Shown piece after piece: positions 1-29,116 of a stretch of 32,000 nt of DNA. The stretch covers positions 20,987-52,986 of the forward strand of contig NZ_PQWO01000026.1 in NCBI RefSeq assembly GCF_003231495.1, written 5' to 3'. This DNA is from Acaryochloris thomasi RCC1774. GTDB taxonomy: Bacteria; Cyanobacteriota; Cyanobacteriia; Thermosynechococcales; Thermosynechococcaceae. Made by a program: the position numbers and the translations under genes. The stretch's first letter is position 1. Every line of letters begins with the position of its first letter. The notes below the pieces were generated by a model. That model saw only the letters and a program-made list of their open reading frames with translations, did no database searches and had not been told where the DNA came from.

Positions 1-90
1 AAGAACCAAGCGTTCGACGGGTTTAAGAGCGCGCCCTACATGGGATAAGACGGCCTGATTGACGTTATTGATCACGGCTTCAAAGTTCAT
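1..90 (-). CDS. Partial CDS: first 30 codons of a gene that continues past the left window edge; product unknown
   Basis: Reverse-strand ATG at 90-88 is followed by 30 sense codons (MNFEAVINNVNQAVLSHVGRALKPVERLVL), open to position 1. This is too short to assign a family. Confidence 0.35.
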   Translation of the reverse strand, partial: MNFEAVINNVNQAVLSHVGRALKPVERLVL

Positions 91-558: not shown

Positions 559-1710
559 ATGAGTCAAATTAATCATCTCAATACCCATCTCAAGCTCGTC
601 AGAAAGTCCCGGCCCCCAATGCAAAAGAGCCGGAAGAGTAGTAAGGTGGAGCGCTTCTTACAGCTACAGATTGACCAGCTTGTCAGTCAACCTCAGATTA
701 AGTGGGCAAGAGTGGTCTGCGAAGATCCGTCATCGATCCACCATCAACTCGTGGCTCATGCCTCCCAGATCCCCTTCCAGATGTCTCGGGCGACCCTCGC
801 AACCATCCGAACTGAGGACTGGTTGACAGAGGTTTCTTCTCATTTGGGTTTAAATCCTGTTGCTGGACTGACGACCGGATTCTACTATTGCTCTCTTAAC
901 GATCAGAAACCGCAGTATTTGCTGCTCTTTATAGACGGATCTCCTTCTCATCTCTTGCGCCAGTGGATTAAGCGTACTTCTGAAGTTCTAGAGGAGTCTC
1001 TAGAGAGCTATCAACAGGCCGCAAAACAATCGCGCAAGATTGAATTGTTGGAAGAAGTTGTGCAGCGCGTGGGGCATCAACTCAGGCATCCGTTGAGCCT
1101 CATAAACCTGTATGCCAACAATCTAGCGGTGGTTCTACCTCAAGGGCCAGAGCAGGAGCAGGTCACTGTTATCAATCAAACTGCGCAAAGTCTCAACCAA
1201 ATGCTGACGGAGATTATGCAGTGCGCCAAAAATGACAAGCTGCAGCTCATTTCTCAAGATTTGCGAAGTCTAATGCAAGAGACGCTAGCAGATTTCCGAG
1301 GTTGGATTCAAGAGAAAGGAATTCGAGTCCGTTTACCTGAGCGCACGGTTAATCTGCCTCTTGATCCACTCCAGATTAAGCAGGCTTTCAATAATTTAAT
1401 CAGTAACGCCATTCACTTTAGCCCCGAAAACAGTGAGCTTTTGATCAACTGGGAGATGGCTCAGGGGAATGTACGGCTGAGTATTTCGGATGAGGGTCCA
1501 GGATTGCCGCAAGACGATCTAGATAATCTGTTTAAACCGTTTTTTACCCGTCGAGAAGGAGGAACAGGCCTGGGTCTAGCCATTGTCCAGAAAGTTGTCC
1601 GTGCTCACGGGGGCAAACTGTGGGCCAAGAATGTAGCCGGTCGCGGCGCAGAATTTTCAATGAGTTTACCCCGTCTATCTGCAAATCTATCCGAGGATAT
1701 CGCATGTTAA
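559..1710 (+). CDS. Sensor histidine kinase: soluble, uncharacterised N-terminal region plus HisKA and HATPase_c
   Basis: 383-aa ORF. H-box [13 protein letters not shown]-box [13 protein letters not shown]1 DEGPGLP, F-box FKPFFT, G2 [10 protein letters not shown]. No TM helix is evident. GAGG lies upstream of the ATG. Confidence 0.9.
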
Positions 1711-2393
1711 ATCAAGCCGAAAAAACCAAGACTCTCTCTGCTGTATTGGTGGATGACGACCATCAGTTTCGAGCAGGTATCCGCTCTCTTCTCAATTTCT
1801 ATACTGTTCAAGATCAGTCCATTTCGGTTGTGGGAGAAGCCAATCGCCCCGATCTAGCCCTCTCTTTAGTGGGCGATAAGCAGCCTGACTTTGTTCTAAT
1901 TGATATGGAGCTAATTGGAGGAGATGGTCTCTCCTTGCTTCAGCAGATCCAGGACAGTGGTTCATCCTGTAAGACGCTTGTTCTGTCGGGCCACGAGGAA
2001 GATAGCTGGATTTACCAAGCCATGCAAACGGGCGCAGATGGCTATGTGTTCAAAAGCCAGGTAACCCAGCAGCTTCAAGATGCGATCGCATCCATCATGG
2101 ATGACCAAATCTATCTCCCCCCTGAAGTCGCCACAGGTTTCTTCCGCCGCTTTCAGACCACCCAAGCCTCTCTACCTAGTCAAATCGGTCAACCCTGCGA
2201 CCTGTCTGAGCGAGAAAATGAGGTTTTGTATTGGCTGGTGCAGGGCGCTTCAAATGTGGTTATTGCCAAAGAACTCTATATTTCTGTGGCCACGGTTAAA
2301 GCACATCTCACTAATATCTTTCTGAAGCTGCAGGTGACAAGCCGTACCCAAGCGATTGTGGCCGCCATCAAGATGAATCTAGTTCAGTCGTAG
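1704..2393 (+). CDS. NarL/FixJ-type response regulator (REC plus LuxR-type HTH)
   Basis: Receiver motifs [14 protein letters not shown] and KTLVLSGH. C-terminal Lux[45 protein letters not shown] prefer ATG 1704, which overlaps the kinase stop as ATGTTAA, over the track start at 1620. Confidence 0.9.
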
Positions 2394-2407
2394 CGTGTGA
2401 GGACTTT

Positions 2408-4498
2408 ATGTCGATTGTTGATCCTCTCACTCAAGCCTATCGATGTACCCAAAACACACCGCTGGGCTGCAAAAAACCGAGAGAGACCATTAAAGAGATC
2501 CCCGGTGCCAAGTTCTGTCTAGAATGTGGTTTTCCAACGCCGCTGCCTGCTCAGTCAGAAATACGGGGCCGTTTGGGAACCTATCGCATCTCCAACCTGC
2601 TCCGATCTCAAGGGCTGGGGCGACTCTATAAAGCGATTCAGATCAGTAATGGTCAACCCGTAGTCGTGAAGGAATTTTTGCTGCCTAACCGCTGTTTTAA
2701 TTCTGCTGAGGCAGCTCAGCGGCGGTCAGTCGTACGTCAAATGCCATTCAATACGTCCAAGAGTCGCGAGTTTCGGGTAATCACACCCGTCGAAGCTATT
2801 GCGGATCCGAGTTGCGATCGCATCCACCTCATCTTCCCCAACTCAACAGCATCCACCTCCACACTCAAGCAAACGCTACAAAAATCAGGAGCCTTTCCCT
2901 CTGACAAAACTCGCCAAGTGCTATTACAGGTTTTGCAAACCCTACACTTTATCCATAATCAGTCCACTGCTGGCGCGAAGCCTTTCGGCGCAGCCCACGG
3001 TAACTTGAGCCTCAATAGTCTCCTTATCAGCGATGATGCCTATGTCTACACTTGTGACTTAGCAGACTGGGAACAACTTTTTACGACGGCTTCGCCCCAG
3101 GCATCGTCACCTGCACAGGATTTAATCGATCTCGGATTGATAGGCTTCTCCCTATGGACGGGACAGGCAATAGAGTCTGGCGCATTGCCCAATCTCAGAG
3201 AGACCCAACATTGGCCCCAGGATGATCCACCCCTCAAAGACTTTCTGCACCGCTTACTTGCCTTAGATGCACCTTTTGAGAATGCGGCCGAAGCGCGGCA
3301 GATGTTACTCAAACTCCCACAACCTGATTCAGCAAGGATTGTGCAAGCGAATCGAGAGCCAGAAAAAAAGCGTAAAAAGCGTTCTCGAAAATATTGGTTG
3401 TTGAGTTTGCTAGCCTTACCCATTTTGGGAGGATTACTGTGGCTAATCTTGCCTCGCTCTAGCTCCCATGCTGAGTCCAATCAGTTTAAGCGTCTGCTGC
3501 CCTCGTTTGCCGATGTGAATGGGATTCAGCCCGGACAGTATCCCTACACAGGGGAAGCACTGGGAACCTGGAGTACAGTTTTGGGGAAAAAGCCGGTCAG
3601 CGATCGCAACATCAGAACTTTGCTCACTCAACCTAAATCAGATGTTGAAGCAACGTTTGAGTATCGTGGGTATCGTCCTGAGCGGTCGCCACTGAATGAG
3701 GTGCTGACAGCGAATGGGAAAGCTGAGTTTGCGATCGCAAGTCTATCCACTCAACTTCCCGACGGCTTACTTCAGGAACCCATCGCCTACGATGGTCTTT
3801 TGGTCTACGTCCCTGCCTACAAAAGCAAAAATCTACCGCATCTCCTGAACGGTCAGATTAGCCTTGAGCAACTACAGCAAATTTTCACCGGGCAGATCAC
3901 CAACTGGCAACAGCTCGATTCTGGTTTGCCGGACCTACCCATTAAGCCCTATCGCCCCAAAGAACCTGAAGCCCTGCGTCTATTTCAACAGAAAGTCTTA
4001 GAGAATGATCCACAACTGATTGCCCAGTTTAGAAAAGTTGAGCAACGGTCCACCTTTGATACCCTGCGCTCCATTGCGACAGGGGAACAGCAGAGCGAAG
4101 CAGGCTCTATTAGTTTCGGCCTCTTGACCCAGACCTGGGACCAATGCAAAGTCTATCCTCTAGCCTTGAGCCAGAACAATAAAACACCAGTGCAGCCTTT
4201 GCTGCGGCAAACGACCAGTGGGATCGTGAAGTCGATCTCACCCACAGACAATCTTTGCCTAGAAAAAAAGCCGCTTCCCAACCTATCGGTCTTTCAATCC
4301 GGACAATATCCGCTCAACATGCCCCTGATCGTGGCCTATCCCCTTGACAACAATCTTCCTGGGCATAACTCAGGTCCACTCTTTGCTAAATTTCTCAAAA
4401 CGCAAGATGGGCAGTATCTCCTCCAGCAAGCAGGGCTAGTCCCCCTCCAGTCCACGCCCAAAACGCATCAATTATCACAGCCTATTGTCAATCGCTAG
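2408..4498 (+). CDS. Multidomain membrane protein: N-terminal zinc ribbon, degenerate Ser/Thr-kinase-like (pseudokinase) domain, one TM helix, C-terminal PstS-like periplasmic binding domain
   Basis: 696-aa ORF. C-x7-C-x15-C-x2-C near the N-terminus. Kinase-like GLGRLY and VVVKEF, but HGN (codons at 2996-3004) where HRD is expected and DLA where DFG is expected. KKRKKRSRK is followed by hydrophobic YWLLSLLALPILGGLLWLILP. C-terminal ISLEQLQQIFTGQITNWQQL resembles the PstS/PBP-like signature. Confidence 0.8.
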   Translation: MSIVDPLTQAYRCTQNTPLGCKKPRETIKEIPGAKFCLECGFPTPLPAQSEIRGRLGTYRISNLLRSQGLGRLYKAIQISNGQPVVVKEFLLPNRCFNSAEAAQRRSVVRQMPFNTSKSREFRVITPVEAIADPSCDRIHLIFPNSTASTSTLKQTLQKSGAFPSDKTRQVLLQVLQTLHFIHNQSTAGAKPFGAAHGNLSLNSLLISDDAYVYTCDLADWEQLFTTASPQASSPAQDLIDLGLIGFSLWTGQAIESGALPNLRETQHWPQDDPPLKDFLHRLLALDAPFENAAEARQMLLKLPQPDSARIVQANREPEKKRKKRSRKYWLLSLLALPILGGLLWLILPRSSSHAESNQFKRLLPSFADVNGIQPGQYPYTGEALGTWSTVLGKKPVSDRNIRTLLTQPKSDVEATFEYRGYRPERSPLNEVLTANGKAEFAIASLSTQLPDGLLQEPIAYDGLLVYVPAYKSKNLPHLLNGQISLEQLQQIFTGQITNWQQLDSGLPDLPIKPYRPKEPEALRLFQQKVLENDPQLIAQFRKVEQRSTFDTLRSIATGEQQSEAGSISFGLLTQTWDQCKVYPLALSQNNKTPVQPLLRQTTSGIVKSISPTDNLCLEKKPLPNLSVFQSGQYPLNMPLIVAYPLDNNLPGHNSGPLFAKFLKTQDGQYLLQQAGLVPLQSTPKTHQLSQPIVNR

Positions 4499-4511
4499 GA
4501 AGAATATCATC

Positions 4512-5054
4512 ATGGGAACCCATCGCTGTCCCGAGCCAAGTTGCTCCTTTTTTAATCAGGTACTACCCCACAATGCCAAAGTCTGCCCCATGTGTGGCAC
4601 CCCCCTCGGGCAGGCTGTCCAAACCCTACCAGAAACAAGAAATTCCTACCCTCAGCCCTTTTCTTTACCGACCCAATCGGCTGACATACCAGTCGATCAG
4701 CCTCGCCCGCAAATACAGCTACACCATGCCAGTGGAGCAAGCTTTGTGCTGATTAGAGAATCGGGCATCATCGGTCGACAGAACTCAACAAGTGGGACTC
4801 GTCCCGAGATTGATTTAACCAATGTTCCCCATGCAGGGGTCATCTCTCGCACCCATGCTCACCTCTTTTGGGATGCAGGACAAAGCACCTACATGGTGAT
4901 TGATGACAGTCGTAACGGCAGCTACCTCAATGGAGAACTCCTTTCTCGGGGTGCACCTCATCCCATTCATCAGGGAGATGAACTGCAGTTAGGTCAAGAT
5001 CGACTGATTTGCCTTCAGATCGAACTGAAGCAACCAGCAAATCAGTTTGCGTAG
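4512..5054 (+). CDS. Zinc-ribbon plus FHA domain protein
   Basis: C-x4-C-x13-C-x2-C (HRCPEPSC...VCPMCG) at the N-terminus. C-terminal FHA signature GRQN...IDL...VSRTHAHLFW...YMVIDDSRNGSYLNGELL. I prefer ATG 4512, preceded by AGGAAG, over the TTG at 4485. Confidence 0.85.
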   Translation: MGTHRCPEPSCSFFNQVLPHNAKVCPMCGTPLGQAVQTLPETRNSYPQPFSLPTQSADIPVDQPRPQIQLHHASGASFVLIRESGIIGRQNSTSGTRPEIDLTNVPHAGVISRTHAHLFWDAGQSTYMVIDDSRNGSYLNGELLSRGAPHPIHQGDELQLGQDRLICLQIELKQPANQFA

Positions 5055-5378
5055 CGTCTTAGTTTACCAACGGTCAAAAAATTGGTCCAACATCTAGGTC
5101 ATTGGGCAAATACCTCCAAATAGTGAAGGAATTTCTACGACAATAATGAACACCTCAATAAAGCGGGCTTTCGCAATGACGAAGGTCCAAACATCAAACA
5201 CAACCAGGGTATTGAGTAAAATATTTTCTTCGGTACTACACGAGTTACCAGCAATGATCACAACAGGATATGCCGATCAGCTGCATCTATGAAAAGAATG
5301 CTTACACCGAGAATTTAAATCCTCACTCCTTAGTTGAACACGACTAAGGCTCATAAGTTTCTACCCAGGAATGATCTT

Positions 5379-6314
5379 ATGTATTCAGAATCAAGACAAG
5401 CACCAGCAAGACAAGACTCACGACGACAATCACCACGACTAGTAGAAAAAAGAGGGCGAGATAGCAGTGAGGATAATGATACCCAGAGAAATCTAAGATC
5501 TAGACATAATAGGAATTTACTTGCAGGAATAACTCAAGTTCACCCAAGCCCCGACGAAGAAGTCAATAACTGCCATGAAAGATCTAATTATTATCGTGAG
5601 AATGTCAGTACTGTTGAAAGAGACGGGGAAGAAATAGAAATATATGATCTGAATACCATTAGCAAGAAAAAGTATGATCAAGCATCTAAAGGAGCACGCG
5701 TTACCAAAGAGACGGGACACACGAGCATTGCTCTTCAAAAGGGTGAAAAGCGAAAAGACTGGGTGATCAATGAGTCAGTCCTTGAATGGAACTCAATTCA
5801 AAAAAGGTTCGTAGCAAAAAGAAATTTCAAATTACCAGTAAGCTGTATTGAATCTACAGAACATATTATTAATTACGCAGACGAACAAAAAATTGAAGAC
5901 TGGGACAAGGATGATAAAAACAAAAAAGTCAATCTTTATTTGGGGTCAAATAAGCATGGCGATAAAAATCGTAAAGCCTTTAGCATAAGTGAAAATAATA
6001 TAAGCACAGAAAACCTGCCTAAACAGCCTAAAAGCTATAACTTCGACACCTCAAACTTAAATATAAATGAAGGACTTATGGTTTTTAATCCTGATGAACC
6101 AGAAAGCTCAATTCACGCTGTTGCAGTCGTAGGCATAAACTCTGTAAACAAACACATTATTGTTGTCGAGCGAAATGCTGGATACACCTCGGGTGGAGCA
6201 AATTTTGTTGATAATAATTGGCTAATAAATTCTTATGATTCACCTAACGCGTTTAAGCTAGATGTATCTGGTGATGACAAAGAACTAGTCATTGGTAAGC
6301 TAAAAGCTGGATGA
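5379..6314 (+). CDS. Hypothetical protein (ORFan): Arg/Ser/Asp-rich disordered N-terminus and a possible papain-like Cys/His/Asn C-terminal domain
   Basis: Long ORF in an AT-rich stretch; the track start is TTG 5334. ATG 5379 is preceded by AGGA. Lys/Asn-rich translation. Motifs are VSCIES (Cys codon 5844-5846) and IHAVAVVGI...IIVVERNAG (His codon 6114-6116). Confidence 0.6.
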   Translation: MYSESRQAPARQDSRRQSPRLVEKRGRDSSEDNDTQRNLRSRHNRNLLAGITQVHPSPDEEVNNCHERSNYYRENVSTVERDGEEIEIYDLNTISKKKYDQASKGARVTKETGHTSIALQKGEKRKDWVINESVLEWNSIQKRFVAKRNFKLPVSCIESTEHIINYADEQKIEDWDKDDKNKKVNLYLGSNKHGDKNRKAFSISENNISTENLPKQPKSYNFDTSNLNINEGLMVFNPDEPESSIHAVAVVGINSVNKHIIVVERNAGYTSGGANFVDNNWLINSYDSPNAFKLDVSGDDKELVIGKLKAG

Positions 6315-6543
6315 GACAGAGATAAAAGTAAATAATTTCATTGAAACACGTACTGACCAGCGTAAGCTTTACACGAACTTCTGCATCAACCTAAAGCTTT
6401 AACTCTTGATTTTTCTTGTAAAATAACGCCTAATTTAATCAGTTTTTTTAACAAGCGTACTTCAATCCTCTTTTAGATAGGGAGTCAACAGCTATAGAAT
6501 ATAGATTTTAATATTAAATATCTGGATCGCCATCAAGTTTGCA

Positions 6544-7440
6544 TCAATCAAATAATCGATTAAAGAATGCTCCCCAGCCTGAGGAGCTTTTTTGTCCAGG
6601 TTTAGACATCGCTTCTAAGTCAGCTTTTGACGACTCCTGTCCCTCTTTTGCTGCCGCTAGATCAGTGGCATATCTGTCCGCAATACTCGATCCTGTATAT
6701 TTTGCTTCGTACACCCTGTATTTTCCAAATTCACGGTAGCCAATCTCATCCACTCCTCCCTCATCAGTTTGATCAATCCATGCACTTTCATTAGCGGCTT
6801 TTCCAAGGAAAAGGAGATCGATGGAACCAATAGGAGAGTCAACCCAATAGTGACTGGTGAAGACCCAATGCTTTCCACCATCGACGTTCCCTGTGGCATT
6901 GTTTTGATCCAAAACTTTCCCGCCTCCAGGGACAAAAAAGTCTTTCGTCTTAGAACAGACCTCTAAATTCTCAATACCAAAGTACTCGTGGGCAATTTTG
7001 ACATAGGCTCTTGCCAGCGTACTGCAGTCTCCATCTTTTCTTCCCTTAAGAAAAGCCTCGGGTGCGGTAGCAGCCATACTGTAAGTAAATCCAGATTTGA
7101 GAAATGCCTCCTTTAATGCCTGCAGGCTTTTTTGCGGATCGGTTTCATTGATCTGTTCCACCATCTTGGCTGCGACTGGATAGTCTTGTAAGAATTTTTC
7201 TCTTTCAGCGCTTGTATCAGGCTCCACTAAATCCGATGCTGAGGTGCCTCGTTTAGGAGGATAAGCGGAGACCTTGCTCAGTACATTGCTAGTTCCAGCA
7301 TCACCCTGTCTACTGGGTCGTGACGTTTCTTGGGTCGTTCTTCGTGATGTTACGCCATCTGCACTGCGCCCTCGCTCTGGCGTTGGTGCTTGTCGTCGTA
7401 GACGATCAGAGGAAGAGTCTGAAGATTGTCGCTGGAACAT
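6544..7440 (-). CDS. Hypothetical protein: Arg/Ser/Thr-rich disordered N-terminus and a possible transglutaminase-like Cys/His/Asp core
   Basis: 298-aa ORF convergent with the previous gene. GDCSTLARAYVKIAHEYFGIEN (Cys codon 7024-7026) resembles the G-x-C-x-x-[FL]-A...GI motif of the transglutaminase-like core. It is followed about 58 aa later by HYWVDSPIGSIDLLF (His codon 6850-6852). Confidence 0.65.
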   Translation of the reverse strand: MFQRQSSDSSSDRLRRQAPTPERGRSADGVTSRRTTQETSRPSRQGDAGTSNVLSKVSAYPPKRGTSASDLVEPDTSAEREKFLQDYPVAAKMVEQINETDPQKSLQALKEAFLKSGFTYSMAATAPEAFLKGRKDGDCSTLARAYVKIAHEYFGIENLEVCSKTKDFFVPGGGKVLDQNNATGNVDGGKHWVFTSHYWVDSPIGSIDLLFLGKAANESAWIDQTDEGGVDEIGYREFGKYRVYEAKYTGSSIADRYATDLAAAKEGQESSKADLEAMSKPGQKSSSGWGAFFNRLFD

Positions 7441-7590
7441 GCAAAACCTTGTACTAAGAAGAAAATAGGAAACAATGAATCAAGCCGAGTCTATCTAAAC
7501 CGACACAGAGAAGCAGATGTATTTAGTAATGAGAACGGGAAGCACTGTTTCTGCAATTAAGGCCGATGTCTCGCTCTATGCTCCTGCTCA

Positions 7591-7785
7591 TTATCTCGAG
7601 CCGACAAAAGACATGAGGGGCTGATGGCGAGTTTCTGCCGCTTGCCGTGCAATTCTCACTGCAGACTGATAGTGAGAGACGAGACAGATTAGTTCAGAAT
7701 CGGTCGGTTTTTCCTGTTCAGTTCGCAACTCTATGCCCTGGGAGGTTTGATAAATCGCAAAAGGCTTAGCTGTGGGGATAGCCAT
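7591..7785 (-). CDS. Hypothetical small protein (64 aa)
   Basis: This is the only ORF over 60 codons in the 560-bp gap upstream of the baseplate operon. The composition looks native. No recognisable motif and no clear RBS. Confidence 0.25.
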   Translation of the reverse strand: MAIPTAKPFAIYQTSQGIELRTEQEKPTDSELICLVSHYQSAVRIARQAAETRHQPLMSFVGSR

Positions 7786-8002
7786 ACTGCCTGAGTTAAG
7801 TACATCAAACTGGACTCTACAGCTTTCCTTAGAGAGTTCCTTGCTACCTTCGGATAGATTGGGTGACGCTATGCCGCCGAATTATCAATGAATCTACGTT
7901 TGTGGCCATATCATCCTTTGCGTACCTAGACTTTCGACTGATAGAGACTTACTGATTGCCAGATAGTCTGATTCTCATACCCGAATTCTGAGGGCAAAAA
8001 GT

Positions 8003-8425
8003 ATGGCATATCTCATAGGTGAGCAGCCACAAGAACATCTGGGGACAGGTCTAGCTTTTCCCTTACAGGTCAATGTGCAGGGCGGACTCCAGCTCAGCTC
8101 TGAGGCCCAGAAAGTCAAAGAGTCGATCTGGCTGATCTTGCGAACTGATCTAGGAGAGCGTCTGTATCGCCCTAACTTTGGCTGTCGGCTATCAGAATTG
8201 GCGTTCGCCCCCATGAATACCGATACGCTGCTGCGAATTCGAATCTATGTGCAAGAGGCACTACAAACCTGGGAGCCTCGGATTCTACTTGATGAGGTGC
8301 GCACAGATACCGACTCGATCAGGGGACGGGTCAATATCGTGATCAACTACCGTCTCAAGTCTCATCCTGATCCCTACAGTTTTGTCTATCCGTTCTATTT
8401 ACAGTCAGAGGTTGAGGAAGACTAA
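8003..8425 (+). CDS. GPW/gp25-family baseplate wedge protein
   Basis: 140 aa. LGTGLAFPL...ESIWLILRTDLGERLYRPNFGCRLSELAFAPMN is the classic gp25/GPW signature (G-x-G-x-x-FP ... GER...P.FG). Confidence 0.92.
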   Translation: MAYLIGEQPQEHLGTGLAFPLQVNVQGGLQLSSEAQKVKESIWLILRTDLGERLYRPNFGCRLSELAFAPMNTDTLLRIRIYVQEALQTWEPRILLDEVRTDTDSIRGRVNIVINYRLKSHPDPYSFVYPFYLQSEVEED

Positions 8426-10632
8426 TGGAATTTGATTTTCTACCCGAACTCCCCAGCTCTCGCCTTGATGACCGGAGCTTTGATGATTTAGTTGAAGAGT
8501 GCCTGCTCCGTATTCCCCGCTATTGCCCAGAATGGACCGATCATAATCTCAGTGATCCAGGAATCACACTGGTTGAGCTATTCTCTTGGCTTACCGATCA
8601 GATGCTGATGCGGTTTAACCAGGTACCGCGTAAAAACTATGTTGCGTTTCTAGAGCTATTGGGAATTCGTTTGCAGCCCCCGGCCTCGGCCCAGGCTCGC
8701 CTCACGTTTTATCTGAGTACGAATTTACTCGAAGACTACACAATTCCAATGGGAACCGAGGTCGCAACAGAGCGAACAGAAACCCAAGAGGCTATTAGCT
8801 TCAGCACGGACCGAGATTTGGTGATTGGTCAGCCGCAAATTAAGCATATTTTGTCAGCGGTGGGCGATTCTCTCCAGTCTTTAAACGACCATACGGGGGA
8901 GTGGCAACCTCAGCAGAGCAGTCTGGCATCCAATCATGAATTCATGGTGTTCCCACAGCAGCCGCAGCCCGGTCATAGCTTCTGCCTTGTCTTCGAGCCA
9001 GACGCACTATTGGAGGGAAATGTGCTGGCGATTCATTTCACTGGAACCCAAGGAACCCCAACGGGCATCGATCCCAATCATCCCCCCCGCCGTTGGGAAG
9101 CCTGGGATGGTGAGGCTTGGATAAATGTGCTACTTCAGGAGGCCGATGATACGACCAATGGCTTTAGCTTCAATGAGCATAAGGTCGAAGGCAGGCAGTC
9201 AGAACCCAGCGGAGAGGTGACGCTCCATTTGCCAGAGTGCTGGGCTGCTCAGAGCTTTGCGGCTTATCGAGGGCGGTGGCTACGCTGTATCTTGACTGAG
9301 CCGACGGCTCATCAGCCGGGATATTCACATCCGCCTCGAATCCGAACAATGGGTCTCCGGGCGATGGGTGGGTCGGTTCAGGCCAGCCAGAGTGTGAAGG
9401 TGCAGGATGAACCCTTGGGCGTTAGCAATGGGAAGCCGGGGCAGAGTTTTGAGATCCAGACGGCTCCGATTCTAGAGCGTCGAGTAGGAGAGCATTTACT
9501 TGTTTCCCCGCCGGGACAGCCCCCCGAGATCTGGGAAGAGGTGGAGGACTTTGCGGAGTCTGGACCACATGATCGCCACTATCTGATTAATTCATTGGAG
9601 GGCACGCTTCAACTGGGGCCGCTGATTCGCGAGCCTCAGTCCCTCAAGCGCCAAACTCAGGCTCGTGCCTACCTGCAGCAGGTTCTCCCCGAAGAAAGAG
9701 CGCCCGGTCAAGATCTCGATGCTCAAATGATGGAGCATCAATATGGCGAGATTCCGCCCCGAGGGGCCGAGCTGATGTTCTCTTATCGGACGGGGGGTGG
9801 TAAGCAGGGGAATGTGCAGGCACGGACGCTGAATTTTCTGAAGACCACCATTCCCTACGTGGCTCAGGTGACAAACCATGAGGCAGCGGTAAATGGGGCA
9901 GATGCTGAGTCCCTGAATCAGGCGGTTTTACGCGCTCCGCATTTGTTGCGATCGCATGATCGGGCCGTAACCGCAGCCGACTTTGAAGCCTTGACCTTAA
10001 AAGGAAGCGGGGGTGCGATCGCAAGATCAAAATGCTTACCGACATCAGCAAACCAACCGGCTGGCAGCGTTAGCATCTGTGTTATCCCCCAAGCCAATAC
10101 CGATCTGATTGATCGGGGGCAGGGCATCGCACCAGAGACCTTCAATCTCAATCCTGCGCTGCGGGAGCAGGTCATGCATTATTTAGACGAGAGACGGTTG
10201 CTCGGCGTGCAGCTCCAGCTCCAGCAGCCCAACTACGTGGGCGTTTCTGTACAGGCAGAGGTCACGTTGGAACCAGCCTATCAAAATCCGGTTGCCCAGG
10301 CTGAAATCCTGCACCAAATTCAAGTCGATCTGTATCGCTATCTCAATCCATTAACGGGTGGTCCCGAGAGGGACGGCTGGCCCTTCGGTCGCCCAGTTTA
10401 TCCCTCAGACATTATGGCTCTGCTCCAGCAGAGGATCGGTATTCAGTATCTAGGTGCCATTCTTTTATTCCCTATTCAGTACAACGGACAGACCTGGCAG
10501 CGGCAAACAACACCGGTTCCCTGTATTGATCCGGGTCCCCTGGGCTTGCTGTGTTCGTGGGCAGATATCCATGAGCGAACCGGACATAGCGTCAATGTCC
10601 TGACGCCCCAAGCTGTTGCCATGAGGGCTTGA
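8425..10632 (+). CDS. Baseplate J / gp6-like baseplate assembly protein (large, CIS-type)
   Basis: 735 aa. The start overlaps the gp25 stop (TAATG). N-terminal CPEWTDHNLSDPGITLVELFSWLTDQMLMRFNQVPRKNYVAFLELLGIRLQPPASAQARLTF matches the conserved N-terminus of baseplate-J-like proteins from phage-tail-like loci, as I recall it. Confidence 0.9.
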   Translation: MEFDFLPELPSSRLDDRSFDDLVEECLLRIPRYCPEWTDHNLSDPGITLVELFSWLTDQMLMRFNQVPRKNYVAFLELLGIRLQPPASAQARLTFYLSTNLLEDYTIPMGTEVATERTETQEAISFSTDRDLVIGQPQIKHILSAVGDSLQSLNDHTGEWQPQQSSLASNHEFMVFPQQPQPGHSFCLVFEPDALLEGNVLAIHFTGTQGTPTGIDPNHPPRRWEAWDGEAWINVLLQEADDTTNGFSFNEHKVEGRQSEPSGEVTLHLPECWAAQSFAAYRGRWLRCILTEPTAHQPGYSHPPRIRTMGLRAMGGSVQASQSVKVQDEPLGVSNGKPGQSFEIQTAPILERRVGEHLLVSPPGQPPEIWEEVEDFAESGPHDRHYLINSLEGTLQLGPLIREPQSLKRQTQARAYLQQVLPEERAPGQDLDAQMMEHQYGEIPPRGAELMFSYRTGGGKQGNVQARTLNFLKTTIPYVAQVTNHEAAVNGADAESLNQAVLRAPHLLRSHDRAVTAADFEALTLKGSGGAIARSKCLPTSANQPAGSVSICVIPQANTDLIDRGQGIAPETFNLNPALREQVMHYLDERRLLGVQLQLQQPNYVGVSVQAEVTLEPAYQNPVAQAEILHQIQVDLYRYLNPLTGGPERDGWPFGRPVYPSDIMALLQQRIGIQYLGAILLFPIQYNGQTWQRQTTPVPCIDPGPLGLLCSWADIHERTGHSVNVLTPQAVAMRA

Positions 10633-11726
10633 TGGTGTCAGCTCTAATGACGAAAGGTGTCAGCCTCCAGCTCACGCCTATGCAGATTCCTGACTCAATT
10701 GCTCAGTCGGGAAGTGATGTCGGGATTGAGAAAAATGCCGTATCACAATCAGAAATTGTGGTCCATCCGGGCGAACTTTGCCGGGTTGCTCTAGAGCTGA
10801 AAAACTGGGAATCGCAAGCCCAGCAGCTCACCCTAAAGCTGGATGGAACCTTTCCCTTAGAGTGGTGTAAAACGGAGGCAGAGCCACAAAGAATAGCCCC
10901 GTTGGAACAGGGATCAACTCACCTGGTAACGGTGGAAGTCCCGGCTAAGAAAAGCTGGTACACTGACCTTTGGTTTCGGGTGCCTCAAGCGTTTTTCGAA
11001 GACCAGGAGGTCTTGTCTACCCATTCTGTCCAGCATCTTGAACTAAATTTTCGGGGCTGTCTGTCCGTTTGCCCAACATCGGAGTCAGAGGCAACGCGAC
11101 GGTCTCCGACCGGCCTACGGCCATCGCCTATTGAGCAGTCCAGTTTTGAACTTTACGTTCGACCCCGAAGCACTTACACCACGTTTTTGCCCACGGTCTA
11201 TCAAGAAATTGACGTCATTCATCGGTTCGTCAAAATCTTCGAGGAAGCCTTCGATCCAGTGGTGAATAGCTTCTCCTCCATGTGGGCCAATCTAGATCCA
11301 TTAACGGCTCCGCAATCGCTGCTGCCGTTTTTAGCCCACTGGGTAGACTGGCCCCTTGATGCACAGCTTAGTTTGACCCAGCAGCGGCGACTGATTCGCC
11401 GAGCGGTAGAAATTTATCGGTCACGGGGTACCCGTAAAGGACTGCGATTTTATCTGCATTTATATACAGGATTGCCGCTCGACGAAGAGATGAGCCGGGA
11501 AGAAGACAAATCAATCAGCATCACCGAACCGTCTGGACAGGGTTGTTTACTAGGCGTGGCCCAGATGGGTGTGGATACGGTTTTAGGAGGTGGCAAAGCC
11601 TACCACTTTGAGGTTCGCTTACGCTGTGAACCAGATTATCCCATCGATGAGCAGCTTGTTCGGCGAATCATTGAACAGGAAAAACCAGCGTTTTGTACCT
11701 ACGACCTATGGATAGAACATCGCTAA
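10632..11726 (+). CDS. P2 gpI-like phage tail/baseplate protein with an N-terminal extension
   Basis: ATG 10632 overlaps the upstream stop (TGATG). The C-terminal half LPTVYQE...RFVKIFEEAFDPV...LDPLTAPQSLLPFLAHWVDWPLD...RRLIRRAVEIYRSRGTRKGLRFYLHLYTG matches the gpI-type tail-protein signature. The roughly 180-aa N-terminal extension is unassigned. Confidence 0.8.
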   Translation: MVSALMTKGVSLQLTPMQIPDSIAQSGSDVGIEKNAVSQSEIVVHPGELCRVALELKNWESQAQQLTLKLDGTFPLEWCKTEAEPQRIAPLEQGSTHLVTVEVPAKKSWYTDLWFRVPQAFFEDQEVLSTHSVQHLELNFRGCLSVCPTSESEATRRSPTGLRPSPIEQSSFELYVRPRSTYTTFLPTVYQEIDVIHRFVKIFEEAFDPVVNSFSSMWANLDPLTAPQSLLPFLAHWVDWPLDAQLSLTQQRRLIRRAVEIYRSRGTRKGLRFYLHLYTGLPLDEEMSREEDKSISITEPSGQGCLLGVAQMGVDTVLGGGKAYHFEVRLRCEPDYPIDEQLVRRIIEQEKPAFCTYDLWIEHR

Positions 11727-11930
11727 GCAAATTATGGTCTGTTTTATACAAAATCTAGAGTTCAGCGATGACGGTCGTATACACAGATTATGAAAAGACT
11801 TCAATGCACTTCCCCACCGTCTGCTGAGCGCTCACGTCGAAGCCTAGCTTCCCCAGTTCCGGGGGGCAGTGCAGTCATGCTGCCTATCAGAAAAATATAT
11901 ATACAGTAGCCACTTTAAGGAGAGATAGTC

Positions 11931-13100
11931 ATGGCCCATTCATTTCCGACACCTGCGATCGCAACCTTACAGCGCCAACAAGTCAAAGACGGCCTCCTCC
12001 TCAATGCCGAACGCTGGCAGCGTGCCCATGCCTACCATCGCCAGCGCCAAAACGTTCACTATCAGTCGCTCAATCAACCCGGCATCGTTTGCGGTTTAGG
12101 AGTTCATGCGATTCCAGCTCCAGAATCAGTTGCGGCAGAATATCGTGATTCTCGCTGGGTCAAGATTCAGCCCGGAATTGCGATCGATTTAGAAGGAAAT
12201 CTGATTATTGTGCCGCAGCCGCTGAATTTTCGGCTGGCCACCGAGGTCAAGGAGTCAGAGCCACTCACCGTATACCTGGTCGCCCAATACCGAGATCCCG
12301 ATCAGCTAGAGGATACGCCTGACCACGAAGTTGTCCAAGAGACCTTCAGGATTGATGAAAGAAGTCGTCCCCCCGGTCGGTTAGACGTGGAGCTGTGCCG
12401 CGTGTTGTTGCGAGAGCAGCAGTCTTCCATCTCAAAACCCAGCGACGTCTTTTTCCCTGGATACGGCGATATCGATCTGCGCTATCGCCATCAGGCTCAG
12501 GCCCGCCCCCAGGGCTTAGTTCGCATTGCAGAACTGCAGCACGGCAGTGCAGACTGTAGCCGCAATTTTTTTAATCTCACCTATTTATCGCGCTCCGTCG
12601 AAGATATTTATCCATCACTGAGAGGAGCAGAAACAGTGGATCAGGTCACTTGGGAAGACGATCTACAGCCCTATGAGCTGATCTACTTGACAGGACGCGA
12701 GAGCTTATCTCTGAATAGCCGTCAATGTTCAATGCTGTCTAGGTTTCTGGAGCAGGGAGGAACGTTACTGGTGGATGCCCCCAGTGACGCAAAAGAGCTG
12801 ATTCAATCGGTTCAGATCCTAGCTCAACAACTACAGACACCGTTGAAGTCATTGCAAGAATCCCGCCGTGACCACCCGCTACGAATGAAGCCGTTCCTGT
12901 TCTCTGCATTGCCGGTGGCAGATCAAACTAGGATTCAGCTTTTATCAGGTGGAGGGATTATTCTCTCCATTGGCAACTTAGCCGGACTGTGGGGGTTAGA
13001 TGAGGGATTGTTGCGATCTCGAGATGAAATAAGAACGGCCCAGGAATTAGGGGTCAATATATTACACTTTGCGTGGAAACGCAGGCAAATGTTTGCTTGA
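11931..13100 (+). CDS. Hypothetical protein, last gene of the baseplate operon; C-terminal DUF4159-like domain
   Basis: 389-aa ORF with AAGGAG upstream. YELIYLTGRESLSLNSRQCSMLSRFLEQGGTLLVDAPSD ... DHPLRMKPFLF ... AQELGVNILHFAWKRR follows the DUF4159 pattern as I remember it (P.lymtG..f.ls..e...Lr.yl..GGfl..D ... HP ... GvNi..YA). The N-terminal 200 aa are unassigned. Confidence 0.7.
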   Translation: MAHSFPTPAIATLQRQQVKDGLLLNAERWQRAHAYHRQRQNVHYQSLNQPGIVCGLGVHAIPAPESVAAEYRDSRWVKIQPGIAIDLEGNLIIVPQPLNFRLATEVKESEPLTVYLVAQYRDPDQLEDTPDHEVVQETFRIDERSRPPGRLDVELCRVLLREQQSSISKPSDVFFPGYGDIDLRYRHQAQARPQGLVRIAELQHGSADCSRNFFNLTYLSRSVEDIYPSLRGAETVDQVTWEDDLQPYELIYLTGRESLSLNSRQCSMLSRFLEQGGTLLVDAPSDAKELIQSVQILAQQLQTPLKSLQESRRDHPLRMKPFLFSALPVADQTRIQLLSGGGIILSIGNLAGLWGLDEGLLRSRDEIRTAQELGVNILHFAWKRRQMFA

Positions 13101-13523: not shown

Positions 13524-13808
13524 ATGTCAATTTACGTCGGCAATCTATCCTACGATGTGGCCGAAGAAGACTTGAGCGGTGCTTTTGCCGAATATGGCAC
13601 TGTTAAAAGTGCAAAACTCCCTACTGACCGTGAAACTGGACGGCCCAGAGGCTTTGGCTTTGTGGAGATGAATACAGAGGCCGAGGAAACAGCAGCTATT
13701 GAAGCCCTTGATGGTGCCGAGTGGATGGGACGCCAGCTCAAGGTCAACAAAGCGAAGCCCCGAGAAAATCGCGGTGGCGGTAATCGTGGTGGTGGCTCTG
13801 GCTGGTAA
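13524..13808 (+). CDS. RRM-type RNA-binding protein with Gly-rich tail (cyanobacterial Rbp class)
   Basis: 94 aa. RNP2 IYVGNL and RNP1 RGFGFVEM. C-terminal RGGGNRGGGSGW. Confidence 0.93.
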   Translation: MSIYVGNLSYDVAEEDLSGAFAEYGTVKSAKLPTDRETGRPRGFGFVEMNTEAEETAAIEALDGAEWMGRQLKVNKAKPRENRGGGNRGGGSGW

Positions 13809-17315: not shown

Positions 17316-18632
17316 ATGAAAGGGGCAATTGTTGCTGCACTCACGCTTCCCTGTTTAATCGCGACAGGGACGACAGCCTATAGCCAAGTGCCAGGAGAAG
17401 CTGGCCTGAGGCTAGAAACAGACGAGATTACCACCACATTTCAGGGGTATCTAGCCCAGTTTGGGGGAGACTGTCCCGGTAGCGAATGGTCTGGACCTGC
17501 GGCCAGCGACGATATTCGGTTCATTTCTTTTTTGACGCCGCCTGCTGAGAGCCGGAAAGTTCAGCTAACGAGCCTAACGACAGGCGAAAGTCTGGAGAAG
17601 GCGTACGAACAGGAAAGTAAAGGATCGTCAGATTTCTCATTACAAAAGCTCGGAGAGACTGACGGCATCCACGAGATTGAATATCTAATCTTTGATAAAG
17701 ATACGGAGAGCGTTCTTGAAGAAGGTTCATTTACCTACACCATAACCACATCGCAGACCGTTCTTTACGATTCTGGTCAATGGCCGGAAAGCCACTATTG
17801 CCATGATGTAGCCAGCAGCTATACCCACTTTGGGGCTATCGGTTTTGGCGGTATAGGCCTTTACTATTGGCCTTACCTCGGAGGCCATCACGGCAGGCGG
17901 CTGCAGCACAGGCACTATCTGAAACACAAGCATTTTCTAAAAGGTAAACATCTAAAAGAAAAGCAGCACTTTAAATCTCACTTCAAGCAGCACGAACATC
18001 TGCCTCACAAACCTATGCAGGCGAAAAAGCGAGGAGACGCCCACAAAGCGCTGCCGTCAAAGATGAAGTCGCAGCAGGTCCATTCTCCTCACTCAAAAAG
18101 GAAAGCGCTGCCGCAGCAGCCCGCAAAACCGCGTCCTCAAAAGAAAGCTGTAGAAGTAAAGCAATCAGAGGTTGTCAAGCCGCGGCCAAAGACTACCCAA
18201 CAAAGGCAGAGACAGCCCTCACGCACGCAGGCTCCACCGCCAATCAGGCCAACAGAGAGGCAGAAGCGAGAGATAATTGTCCCTCGCAAGACTGAGCAGA
18301 GAAACAAACTCTCACCGCAGCGGATCAAGCCGAATCAAAAAGCGGCACCTATCAAAAAGCGGAAGGTCGTTAGGACAAGTCCTCGAAAAGCAATCAAGAC
18401 AAAAACGGTAAAGAAGAAGCAAACGCCTCTTCAACAGCGCAGAAGTCGTCTCCAAAGAAGGCGTGGGGTTAGGCCGCCGAGTCGAACCTCAACCCCTTCC
18501 CGGCAGTACGGGCAGCGAAGGGCGATTTATCAAGCAGCACCCAGACAAATACAGCGACGGAGCAGAAGAAGGGCTAAGCCTCAGTCCAAGAGACAAGCGA
18601 ACAGGCGAACTCGAAGGCCGATCCAAAGATGA
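17316..18632 (+). CDS. Secreted protein: signal peptide, globular domain of about 190 aa, and a long His/Lys then Lys/Arg/Gln/Pro-rich polybasic tail
   Basis: 438-aa uninterrupted ORF. N-terminal MKGAIVAALTLPCLIATGTTAYSQ looks like a Sec signal. The tail begins at HHGRRLQHRHYLKHKHFLKGKHLKEKQHFKSHFKQHEH and runs to the C-terminus (…RRSRRRAKPQSKRQANRRTRRPIQR). Confidence 0.7.
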   Translation: MKGAIVAALTLPCLIATGTTAYSQVPGEAGLRLETDEITTTFQGYLAQFGGDCPGSEWSGPAASDDIRFISFLTPPAESRKVQLTSLTTGESLEKAYEQESKGSSDFSLQKLGETDGIHEIEYLIFDKDTESVLEEGSFTYTITTSQTVLYDSGQWPESHYCHDVASSYTHFGAIGFGGIGLYYWPYLGGHHGRRLQHRHYLKHKHFLKGKHLKEKQHFKSHFKQHEHLPHKPMQAKKRGDAHKALPSKMKSQQVHSPHSKRKALPQQPAKPRPQKKAVEVKQSEVVKPRPKTTQQRQRQPSRTQAPPPIRPTERQKREIIVPRKTEQRNKLSPQRIKPNQKAAPIKKRKVVRTSPRKAIKTKTVKKKQTPLQQRRSRLQRRRGVRPPSRTSTPSRQYGQRRAIYQAAPRQIQRRSRRRAKPQSKRQANRRTRRPIQR

Positions 18633-18724
18633 GGGGGATGGAGCTGCTTACGAGACAAGGTCAGGTCTGGCTCATCCGCCGTCGATCTTCGACGGTTATC
18701 AATCCCCGTTGATGAGCCCTCAAT

Positions 18725-19231
18725 TCGAATTCTATTCTTGACGGCAGTTCGTTCCTCAACCAATTGTTGGCGTGTTCGTGATACTAATCGATGAGATTCT
18801 TCTGCTTCACTCGGAATACGAATTCCTGGCAAACGCCTCACTTCAATCAATGCAGAGAGTTTGAGAGCATCTCGTTGATCTATTTTGACCCGATTTTAGA
18901 CTGTCGTTTCAATGCTGGCGGCATTGACGACTTGATTAGCGATGCCTACATTTGTTAGCTGCCGATGCAAGATAAAGCCTGAGAAGCCGGCTTCGTAAAC
19001 ACTATGGAGCAGGGCTTTAGGAAAATAGGCTGTGAGCTGATGGGCAAGTTTCACTGGGTCTACTAACGTCTGCCATTTCTTGACCAGCCCTCCCTCCATC
19101 ACCACTGCAACTGAGTAGGTGTATTTATGACCATCAATACCAATGAAGAGGTTTTTACCTTCGTATGATTGCTGCCTTAATGAGCTGTTCAGAGCAATCT
19201 CCTTTGGGACGATTACTTGTCGTCTCTTCAA
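18725..19231 (-). pseudogene. IS110-family transposase, N-terminal (DEDD/RuvC-like) part only; in-frame stop and 3-prime truncation
   Basis: TTG start at 19231. LFIGIDGHKYTYSVAVV matches the IS110 GID.HK motif. An in-frame TAA at 18896-18898 interrupts ...AASIETTV*NRVKIDQRDALKLSALIEVRRLPGIRIPSEAEESHRLVSRTRQQLVEERTAVKNRIR. Recognisable similarity ends near 18725 (boundary approximate). The C-terminal half of a normal transposase of about 340-400 aa is absent. Confidence 0.75.
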
Positions 19232-19288
19232 TCACTAGCCTAACGGCTAGCCCTAGACACAACTCATCATAGAGACAACATGACCTTT
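19218..19288. repeat. Copy (B) of the hairpin-containing repeat, at the 5-prime end of the IS110 transposase gene
   Basis: See copy A. The hairpin GCTAGCCTAACGGCTAGC is at 19235-19252. Confidence 0.7.
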
Positions 19289-19412
19289 TTTCTGATTAAC
19301 CGCAGATTTTGTCAGCAAGATGCGATCTCGCTGAGTTCTGGCTTTCTAAGCCAAGCTATGATGAACGTCTAGGACAAACGCGATCGAGTAAGGAAAGCCT
19401 CGTTATTTTGCC

Positions 19413-28664: not shown

Positions 28665-28822
28665 TGACTTTGCCCACCTGCTCTAGTCCATACCCTTTGA
28701 GAGTGCCCGGAAATTTGCATAAACTGACGTTGAAAATAGCTGTAAGACTTTAGATACATCGGGAATTGGAGAACATTGTTATCGTACTTTTGATCGAACA
28801 GAAGACCTAAATATGAGATGTA

Positions 28823-29116
28823 TTAGCTTAATGATCTCTCTAATCTGTTTCTAGTCAAGCGGGCGCGAAGATATTCTTCAACACTACTGTATGACATAGC
28901 TTGCTTACGATCACTGGTTGCCCTCACTACAATTTCATTAAAAAGCTCGCAGCTTAGGCAAAGTCCTTGGTAGAGCCGTGACAGCTTCTGTTGATTTGCT
29001 ACGACCTTTATAATTTGTAAACTAGCCGTAACCCTCACACTGCTCAGGGCCGTTTCAAGCTCATGGAAGAAAAATTGGATCATTATTCTTGCGTACTGAG
29101 ATAGGCGATATTTCAA
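28823..29116 (-). CDS. Doubtful hypothetical ORF (97 codons, TTG start), predicted helical
   Basis: The ORF lies in an AT-rich intergenic block and has no ATG at its 5-prime end; an internal ATG gives about 86 aa. No recognisable motif. Confidence 0.2.
   Translation of the reverse strand: MKYRLSQYARIMIQFFFHELETALSSVRVTASLQIIKVVANQQKLSRLYQGLCLSCELFNEIVVRATSDRKQAMSYSSVEEYLRARLTRNRLERSLS

Follow-up and report, generated by a model that had tools for sequence, protein, structure and literature searches.

How can the baseplate wedge genes of a contractile injection system (CIS) be conserved in a place where the rest of the machine is missing? The question is raised by four genes at 8003-13100 of the window, i.e. 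the whole 32-kb stretch of DNA that was analysed, for which the earlier note had offered two explanations, a system split across the genome or a stand-alone module with a different function. Comparison with related genomes (GCA_050330855.1, RU_4_10 and genomes with separate sheath units) supports the split and does not favour the stand-alone module. The region 559-13100 is likely to be one module of a chromosomally resident, dispersed CIS that is widespread in cyanobacteria and related to the type IId 'cytoplasmic' systems of Streptomyces.

The first three genes, all on the forward strand, are gp25-like, J/gp6-like and gpI-like and translationally coupled, as originally reported: the gene calls and family identities hold, and successive genes overlap in TAATG (8423-8427) and TGATG (10630-10634). 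The gene at 8003..8425 encodes a gp25/Cis9 sheath-initiator-type wedge protein, which matched GPW_gp25 (PF04965) in the Pfam scan with an E-value of 1e-23 (83 bits, cutoff 27) and Cis9 of the Streptomyces system CISSc (PDB 9gtp_V) with 3e-24. It is followed by the Cis11 (gp6/J-type) wedge protein at 8425..10632, with matches to Baseplate_J, to TIGR02243 (605 bits, cutoff 155.8; aligned from position 2 to 658 of a 659-position model) and to CISSc Cis11 (9gtp_1K, E 1.3e-114). The Cis12 (gp7/I-type) protein at 10632..11726 (alternative start 10629) matched TIGR02242 (128 bits, cutoff 51.9) and Tail_P2_I. It is 365 aa long, including an extra N-terminal ~180 residues, and the Cis12-family match is partial; residues 183-281 match CISSc Cis12 (9gtp_E, E 2e-6).

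The fourth gene (11931..13100, forward strand) was correctly called but left unnamed in the earlier note. It encodes a protein of the tail-fibre slot, with a Cis13-like N-terminal domain and DUF4159 in the C-terminal half (E 1.7e-14). The CIS13_fam model matched residues 20-130 in 26 of 26 family members (best E 9e-12), with scores far under the full-length cutoff, and TM-segment prediction gave no transmembrane helix in the protein. The gene is located directly 3' of Cis12 in 79 of 84 loci and has a dN/dS of 0.04-0.09.

No other tail part was detected in the 32 kb, in agreement with the first reading of the sequence. Among the main ORFs that do not overlap one another and have at least 80 aa, most were scanned with Pfam or NCBIfam models. 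In tblastn, probes from this family for sheath, tubes, Cis7, VgrG, PAAR, tape-measure-like protein, AAA+ ATPase and cap gave no match to the window. A CIS with sheath, tube, spike, tape measure, cap and ATPase in one locus is not found in the window. The HIP1 sites (GCGATCGC) at 9948, 10015 and 11955 are present, and the window has 17 such sites compared to ~0.5 expected from base composition. The composition is host-like, as had been claimed, with a GC content of 0.50-0.57 in the module and a window mean of ~0.49.

At least 474 species genomes of cyanobacteria encode a relative of Cis11 (J). The synteny comparison that had been proposed showed that the four-gene module recurs across cyanobacteria, in 79-84 of 84 loci, with the gene order kept across cyanobacterial orders. 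In the commonest layout (52/84 loci) there is a single operon, in which tube, tape-measure-like protein, Cis7, VgrG and PAAR precede gp25, J and I, and the DUF4159 gene comes last. Six loci, the window included, have no spike within at least 7 kb on either side. Accessory clusters were annotated as gp19 tube, CIS_tube, PAAR, eCIS_core effectors and an AAA+WHD ATPase. The tape-measure-like protein has 137-205 aa in clade A compared to ~1000 aa or more in clade B; the former length is odd for a full-length tail.

The closest genome available to the window is a Thermosynechococcaceae MAG, GCA_050330855.1. Its wedge locus (L005) has the same gene order and a J protein 86 % identical to that of the window, while tube, Cis7 and VgrG (L084) are on another contig, among housekeeping genes. 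The same split was seen in Acaryochloridaceae RU_4_10, with the wedge in L006 and tube-Cis7-VgrG in L087. In relatives the cap-sheath-tube module forms a third unit, either 5 kb off or on another contig, and on the plasmid pBOCT2 the system is complete but dispersed, sheath, cap and ATPase included. Sheath proteins (PF04984/PF17482) are encoded in pBOCT2, PCC 7102, Scytonema and Chroococcidiopsis, on the same or different contigs depending on the genome; PCC 7102 has a clade-A wedge and its sheath module on another contig. The searches identified no sheath in a Thermosynechococcaceae genome. From the sister genomes we infer that spike, tube and sheath are probably present also in the genome of the window.

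It could be argued that the missing genes are just beyond the window on the same 52,986-bp contig, of which ~21 kb is outside. This is rather unlikely, since at least 8 kb on the left and 19 kb on the right separate the wedge operon from the window edges, and the genes in these stretches are unrelated. Further, the left edge matches a STAND-like gene flanking two related loci (L004 and L005), in which no tail genes follow it within the stretch seen, and the spike module of the sister MAG is on a different contig. Even with the missing genes on the same contig, the system would be non-contiguous. A remnant of a prophage or tailocin, now decaying and without function, would fit with tail genes present only as a subset and with an IS110 fragment 6 kb downstream of the module. 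However, the four ORFs are intact and coupled, dN/dS is 0.04-0.12 at a dS of ~1 or more, the gene order is widely conserved, the HIP1 density equals that of the host, Pfam scans of the window detected no capsid, terminase or integrase genes, and relatives of the module were absent from 2.9 million viral contigs. These observations contradict a dead prophage, making this explanation very improbable, and together with the 474 cellular genomes they bear out the earlier view of a long-resident gene set, not a fresh prophage fragment.

A stand-alone baseplate deserves more discussion. Here a clade-A wedge, with or without a distal spike hub, would have been exapted independently of a sheath into a non-contractile, signal-gated complex, e.g. 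a platform close to the membrane or a puncturing device of very short length. The clade-A wedge and spike loci examined have no sheath gene within 7-19 kb, those inspected for PAAR showed none, and the clade-A tape-measure-like protein is short. Thermosynechococcaceae, Acaryochloris, Hyella and Pleurocapsa were all absent from the best 120 sheath matches, but these reach down to 78 % identity only and the absence therefore means little. On the other hand, constraint within the wedge module is strongest on the sheath initiator gp25 (dN/dS 0.04-0.06), and PCC 7102 has both a clade-A wedge and a sheath. To our knowledge, all characterised gp25/Cis11/Cis12 assemblies are parts of sheathed machines, which was also counted against this reading. 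We consider it improbable. The related proposal, that the clade-A baseplate (wedge and Cis13N-DUF4159 protein) and a distal spike hub, with its tape-measure-like protein of 137-205 aa, make up a sheath-less or ultra-short device under the pseudokinase-PBP/FHA/two-component cassette, is likewise improbable; if true, the system would be a signal-gated baseplate machine instead of a conventional contractile tail.

The dispersed CIS appears to have its own regulatory genes. The earlier note had described an Rbp gene on one flank, which is present (RRM_1, 13524-13808), and signalling genes on the other; the latter are more than a flank, as the four genes at 559-5054, all on the forward strand, are conserved components of the system. 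The cassette begins with a sensor histidine kinase (559..1710; HATPase_c, HisKA), which has syntenic orthologues in Nostoc flagelliforme (55 % identity) and in 15 loci and a dN/dS of 0.08-0.09. The NarL/LuxR-type response regulator (1704..2393; Response_reg, GerE), for which the listed ORF starts at GTG 1620 and homology at 1704, is 79 % identical to the Nostoc orthologue (dN/dS 0.04). The third gene (2408..4498), syntenic in 19 loci, encodes a receptor-like protein with a zinc-ribbon, a kinase-like domain (Pkinase match of 21 bits, under the cutoff), one transmembrane helix near residues 329-350 and a PstS-like PBP_like_2 domain. GxGxxG, HRD, DFG and APE motifs were not found in the kinase-like domain, and an HGN motif of the window protein is kept at at least 95 % across 15 family members; the domain is predicted to be a pseudokinase. 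The last gene (4485..5054) encodes an FHA-domain protein (E 2.4e-13) with an N-terminal CxxC...CxxC, and it is directly upstream of CIS structural genes in 22 loci from both clades. The cassette as a whole is orthologous and syntenic with that of Nostoc (55-79 % identity) and adjoins also the sheath module in relatives.

Between the FHA gene and gp25 there is a slot of which the content varies between otherwise syntenic loci; its cargo-like ORFs were not mentioned in the earlier note. The forward-strand ORF 5334..6314 in this hypervariable, AT-rich slot (GC 0.39) is a candidate cargo gene, with no Pfam, NCBIfam or PADLOC match and only one sub-threshold PHROGs match of unknown function. On the reverse strand, 6544..7440 encodes an effector-like protein with invariant GDC...H...D residues, possibly a Cys-His-Asp hydrolase. 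No significant PDB or Pfam match was obtained for it, and it is homologous to the C-terminal half of the c15 proteins (E 7e-30), which carry a 'QxGDxYEQEAD' leader and adjoin CIS of the window's family in ~16 loci. Inspected by eye, the slot proteins have in common a charged, disordered leader at the N-terminus that contains an 'NLL...P' motif. A conserved 64-aa ORF (7591..7785, reverse strand), directly upstream of and divergent from gp25, is 58-92 % identical and in the same position in five loci (L003-L006 and L008). The two hypervariable ORFs look like cargo, likely toxins, an assignment based on position, variability and homology and not on a recognised toxin fold.

By sequence, the nearest characterised relative appears to be the cytoplasmic CIS of Streptomyces (type IId) rather than the thylakoid-anchored tCIS of Anabaena. 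CISSc of S. coelicolor and S. venezuelae (eCIS lineage IId; PDB 9GTP/9GTR/9GTS, 8BKY, 8BL4) gave the strongest matches among solved structures for Cis11 (E 1e-114) and Cis12 of the window and for VgrG and sheath of the family, and the second strongest for gp25, within ~6 bits of the uncharacterised 2ia7. Plasmid matches at ~35 % identity are from Streptomyces and Deinococcus; type IId comprises systems of Streptomyces, Chloroflexota and Deinococcota. In both systems Cis12 is short and is followed directly, in the usual tail-fibre position, by a non-fibre accessory gene, and relatives of the window system also encode an AAA+ ATPase and a Pvc16_N-type cap. In CISSc this slot is held by CisA (PMC12237407), a membrane protein, whereas the slot protein of the window is predicted to be soluble with no transmembrane helix. 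CISSc is also one contiguous cluster (SCO4242-4260), while the modules of the window's family are dispersed, and the HK-RR-pseudokinase/PBP-FHA cassette has no described counterpart there; the word 'kinase' is absent from PMC12237407. The type IId systems are characterised by free cytoplasmic particles that cause stress-induced cell death.

The tCIS of Anabaena sp. PCC 7120 (all3313-all3327, PDB 7B5H) is likewise a cyanobacterial, chromosomal and intracellular CIS with gp25, Cis11, Cis12, Cis13 and DUF4157/eCIS_core effectors, but it is of a different lineage: 7B5H was not matched by the J protein of the window at E <= 1e-3, and for sheath, spike and gp25 the matches to it are far weaker than those to CISSc. 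The tCIS genes lie in one cluster, and a kinase/FHA cassette is absent. Its Cis12 has over 1100 aa with a membrane-contact extension (aa 610-1100), which the Cis12 of the window lacks, and its Cis13, which has a transmembrane helix, resembles gene 4 in the N-terminal domain only. Threonine phosphorylation in the T6SS proceeds via the PpkA-PppA-Fha1 pathway. There too the genes for a contractile machine are accompanied by those for a kinase-fold membrane receptor and an FHA protein, suggesting post-translational gating of assembly. However, TssB/C, TssJLM and ClpV were not found in the window by Pfam scans, the kinase-like domain lacks the catalytic motifs, the sensor domain is PstS-like and a classical HK-RR pair is also present. 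Relatives share the core parts Cis1, 2, 5/7, 8, 9, 10, 11, 12, 14, 15 and 16 with the extracellular CIS of the Afp/PVC type, as well as effectors with N-terminal leaders, but the relationship is distant, a tail-fibre gene encoding receptor-binding domains is missing and the genes are not contiguous.

In most relatives the cassette precedes an operon of small protein, gp19 tube, tape-measure-like protein, Cis7, VgrG, PAAR, gp25, Cis11, Cis12 and Cis13N-DUF4159, while a separate cap-sheath-tube-tube module and the AAA+ ATPase are either close by or at other sites of the genome. We propose that in the lineage of the window the tube-to-spike segment has moved to another locus, leaving behind the cassette, the cargo slot and the wedge genes. 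gp25, Cis11 and Cis12 would form six wedges around a hub of VgrG, Cis7 and tube encoded elsewhere, and the Cis13N-DUF4159 protein would attach to the wedge via its N-terminus, filling the tail-fibre/CisA position as an anchor or trigger. The HK-RR pair may control transcription of the injection system, and the membrane pseudokinase-PBP receptor and the FHA protein may gate assembly or firing, as in the PpkA-Fha pathway. As the kinase-like domain has no catalytic motifs, PpkA-like phosphorylation would need another kinase or be absent. The two slot ORFs would be the cargo. By analogy with CISSc, its site of action is probably within the producing cell, which is the least certain step of this explanation.

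The detection and classification of CIS usually presuppose that the genes form a contiguous locus. A conserved machine that is present in at least 474 cyanobacterial species genomes and can be spread over three or more sites would be missed or fragmented by cluster-based surveys; our literature search found no paper on the dispersed family, its sensor cassette or the Cis13N-DUF4159 slot protein. This new protein, with a Cis13-like N-terminus and DUF4159, holds the tail-fibre/CisA position and may be an anchor or trigger. With its own sensor cassette, comprising a two-component pair, a membrane pseudokinase-PstS-like fusion and an FHA protein, the system would provide an entry to the question of what signal triggers assembly or firing of a cytoplasmic CIS.

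The baseplate genes reported in the earlier note were confirmed by an ORF map and family scans of the window. The gp25-like gene (8003-8425) matched PF04965 (E 1e-23), the J gene (8425-10632) matched Baseplate_J and, at 605 bits (cutoff 155.8), TIGR02243, named 'putative baseplate assembly protein', and the I gene (start at 10629 or 10632, end at 11726) matched Tail_P2_I, TIGR02242 and, in part, the NCBI CIS12 family. DUF4159 lies in the C-terminal half of the fourth gene (11931-13100), whose match to the CIS13 family is limited to residues 20-130. The gene overlaps TAATG (8423-8427) and TGATG (10630-10634) and the HIP1 sites at 9948, 10015 and 11955 lie exactly where they had been placed; 17 HIP1 sites occur in the window, compared with approximately 0.5 predicted from base composition. 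The reported lack of other tail parts also held. Family scans, which took in most of the main non-overlapping ORFs of at least 80 aa in the rest of the window, returned signalling and housekeeping genes, an ABC/HlyD exporter, an IS110 fragment or ORFs without a family match, and tblastn with proteins from relatives of the window's own CIS family gave no match to a sheath, tube, Cis7, VgrG, PAAR, tape-measure-like protein, ATPase or cap in the 32 kb. A promoter and terminator scan performed no better than on shuffled sequence.

Three ORFs of 438, 289 and 541 aa (17316-21904) surround an IS110 transposase fragment (18896-19231, minus strand), with an AT skew peak of 0.26 at 18-19 kb. Pfam, NCBIfam and PADLOC gave no match for them, and none of the fetched loci contained a relative. 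A 97-aa ORF heads a minus-strand operon at 23267-29116, where it is joined by a PPIase, an ABC exporter (N-terminal cNMP-binding domain, C39 peptidase domain) and HlyD; this small ORF was considered as a leader peptide and rejected, having no recognisable leader and no obvious double-glycine. At the window edge (1-90, minus strand) the N-terminus of a putative STAND/NB-ARC-like protein of about 557-570 aa can be read. In the relative loci L004 and L005 this gene closely precedes the regulatory cassette in divergent orientation, and in L004 a CHASE2-type protein kinase comes after it.

Relatives of the J protein were found in at least 474 species-representative genomes, and the best 80 J loci fetched were almost all cyanobacterial. 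Clades were defined as identity tiers of J: clade A is 72-88 % identical to the window J (the window, Thermosynechococcaceae, Acaryochloridaceae, Hyella and some Nostoc) and clade B 58-62 %. When all ORFs from the window and 83 loci were clustered, gp25-J-I-DUF4159 was present in 79-84 of the 84 sequences, and in 52 of the 84 loci it is the end of a longer co-directional operon, in the order 79-aa protein, gp19-type tube (PF06841), tape-measure-like protein of about 1000 aa, CIS_tube (PF19266, Cis7-like), VgrG, PAAR and gp25-J-I-DUF4159. Genes near the wedge operons of relatives include those for eCIS_core/DUF4157 effectors and for a Cis15-like AAA+ ATPase that has a winged-helix domain. The tube-to-VgrG block is downstream of DUF4159, in either orientation, in eight clade-A loci, and six loci, the window among them, have no VgrG within at least 7 kb on both sides; in 18 loci the flanks were too short to judge its presence. 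Sheath or tube candidates among ORFs upstream of the operon turned out to be RsgA, GDSL lipase or effectors, and genes that follow DUF4159 and the ATPase in the same direction, considered as tail parts, proved to encode polymorphic leader proteins, an outer-membrane-like protein or housekeeping functions. In clade A the tape-measure-like protein has 137-205 aa (L084 6428-6841; L001 17984-18403); in clade B it is repeat-rich and reaches about 1000-1177 aa (L088 12781-16314). A C-terminal 'ERERxG..G.LPW' tail is common to both forms and to the 79-aa protein at the operon head.

The earlier note had offered two readings, a system split across the genome or a stand-alone module derived from a baseplate, and the relatives bear out the first. 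GCA_050330855.1 is a Thermosynechococcaceae MAG with a J protein 86 % identical to that of the window. Its contig JBHJNL010000127 (L005) has the order HK-RR-receptor-FHA-slot-gp25-J-I-DUF4159, as in the window, and contig JBHJNL010000104 (L084) carries a separate locus, located between protein kinase genes and housekeeping genes, with a 52-aa gene, gp19 tube, a 137-aa gene, CIS_tube and VgrG. The same two-locus layout was found in Acaryochloridaceae RU_4_10 (L006 and L087); the wedge/hub split in the nearest lineage is real. The sheath is a third module, and none of the 84 loci showed a sheath within 10 kb of J. The Brasilonema plasmid pBOCT2 carries a cap-like gene (293 aa), a sheath (555 aa) and tube genes some 5 kb upstream of the regulatory cassette, in divergent orientation to it, with an AAA+ ATPase and a DUF4255 protein 12-16 kb downstream. 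Sheaths of this type are 78-92 % identical across cyanobacterial orders. Sheath and J are on one contig in Scytonema, Chroococcidiopsis, Phormidesmis and Stigonema, and on different contigs in Aulosira ZfuVER01, Nostoc DedQUE08 and D. desertica PCC 7102. The PCC 7102 sheath module reads Pvc16_N cap, sheath, two tubes, three small genes, FHA (519 aa), WD40 and a 772-aa gene; it diverges from a further HK-RR-receptor-FHA cassette and has no baseplate genes within 10 kb. The best 120 sheath matches listed were all at least 78 % identical and mostly from Nostocales, with no Thermosynechococcaceae sheath shown among them; names obtained for further hits through their clusters were Nostoc and Rhizonema. 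It is improbable that the clade-A baseplate is a stand-alone, sheath-less or ultra-short device, and this reading keeps its small share because the clade-A tape-measure-like proteins are very short (137-205 aa, where those of clade B have about 1000 aa or more).

The dispersed system is also not a prophage remnant. All eight conserved genes have dN/dS values of 0.04-0.12 at dS of about 1 or more, the ORFs remain intact, HIP1 sites are as dense as in the surroundings, and the patterns that found the 474 cellular loci gave no match in 2.9 million viral contigs. This supports the earlier suggestion that the genes are long resident and no fresh prophage fragment.

The signalling genes noted earlier are present, but they are not a mere flank. 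The HK (559-1710), RR (1704-2393), kinase-like/PBP protein (2408-4498) and FHA protein (4485-5054) have orthologues in syntenic positions in Nostoc flagelliforme (55-79 % identity). In both clades these genes stand ahead of the structural genes; they are found again next to the sheath module, and purifying selection acts on them as it does on the wedge genes. The 'signalling flank' belongs to the CIS system. The plus-strand product of 2408-4498 has an N-terminal zinc ribbon, one TM helix, a PstS-like extracytoplasmic domain and a kinase-like domain without glycine loop (GxGxxG), HRD, DFG or APE. An HGN motif, kept in at least 95 % of 15 family members, may be read as replacing HRD, and the protein is best described as a predicted conserved pseudokinase receptor. 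The FHA protein also has an N-terminal CxxC...CxxC. An HK-RR(-pseudokinase/PBP-FHA) cassette is likewise divergent from the cap-sheath module in L088 (6551-11618), L091 of PCC 7102 (4005-8613) and L092 (477-2273); the PCC 7102 copy is clade-B-like, yet the wedge of this strain belongs to clade A. A TM-plus-WD40 protein of about 740-750 aa accompanies the CIS (L091 15282-19874; L005 14548-18987; L001 1-1321), followed in L091 and L005 by a protein of about 770 aa. The pair is within the sheath module in PCC 7102 and directly after DUF4159 in L005, and the WD40 gene is upstream of HK in Nostoc clade-A loci; both are absent from the window.

The segment between FHA and gp25 is hypervariable in clade-A loci. 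In the window (5001-7000) it is AT-rich (GC 0.39 compared with about 0.49) with a strong AT skew (0.27), and no HIP1 site occurs between 3731 and 9948, which is consistent with recent exchange. An effector-like ORF (6544-7440, minus strand) matches, at E 7e-30, the C-terminal half of 'QxGDxYEQEAD'-leader proteins, which adjoin this CIS in about 16 loci. Invariant GDC...H...D residues in its family would fit a putative Cys-His-Asp hydrolase; PDB and Pfam gave no significant match. None of the fetched loci has a relative of the candidate cargo ORF in the slot (5334-6314, plus strand), which by eye gives the impression of a charged, disordered N-terminal leader as in other slot proteins. A 64-aa ORF (7591-7785, minus strand) is conserved next to gp25. 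PADLOC gave no match for the unannotated ORFs of the window. Tandem proteins downstream of the clade-B ATPase share an N-terminal leader ('GMFxxRPFVVQ...KTSLMxAExYGH') with unrelated C-termini (L020 16627-19617; L031 13520-14977; L038 20375-21385) and look like a second polymorphic cargo class.

The fourth gene product is soluble and is encoded directly after Cis12, and CIS13-family matches cover its N-terminal ~110 residues in 26 of 26 members. Since the Cis13 N-terminal domain is the baseplate-binding part in the thylakoid-anchored CIS of Anabaena (tCIS; PMC8894136), we infer that this protein would dock on the wedge by its N-terminus, with DUF4159 facing outward. A single-sequence AlphaFold model was unusable (mean pLDDT 31.5), and the only natural structural relative in a profile search was the uncharacterised 4i66; matches to de novo TIM barrels in PDB were discarded as repeated beta-alpha-unit matches to designed proteins.

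The best solved-structure match was CISSc, the cytoplasmic CIS of Streptomyces (PDB 9GTP, 9GTR, 8BKY, 8BL4), for Cis11 (E 1e-114), Cis12, VgrG (1.6e-53) and the family's sheath (6e-119); for gp25 it was second (E 3e-24), just behind the uncharacterised 2ia7 (3.7e-26). These matches were far stronger than those to tCIS (7B5H), to which J gave no match at E <= 1e-3, and the Cis12 extension and Cis13 TM helix that define tCIS are both absent here. Plasmid-borne relatives with about 35 % identity belong to Streptomyces and Deinococcus, the genera that host lineage IId (PMC12998442). CISSc has no tail fibre, and the gene after its Cis12 encodes CisA, a membrane protein required for firing (PMC12237407), whereas a soluble Cis13N-DUF4159 protein occupies this slot here. 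A literature search found no paper describing such a dispersed, sensor-coupled system. We assign it as a dispersed, sensor-coupled, probably type-IId-like cyanobacterial CIS with Cis13N-DUF4159 in the fibre slot.
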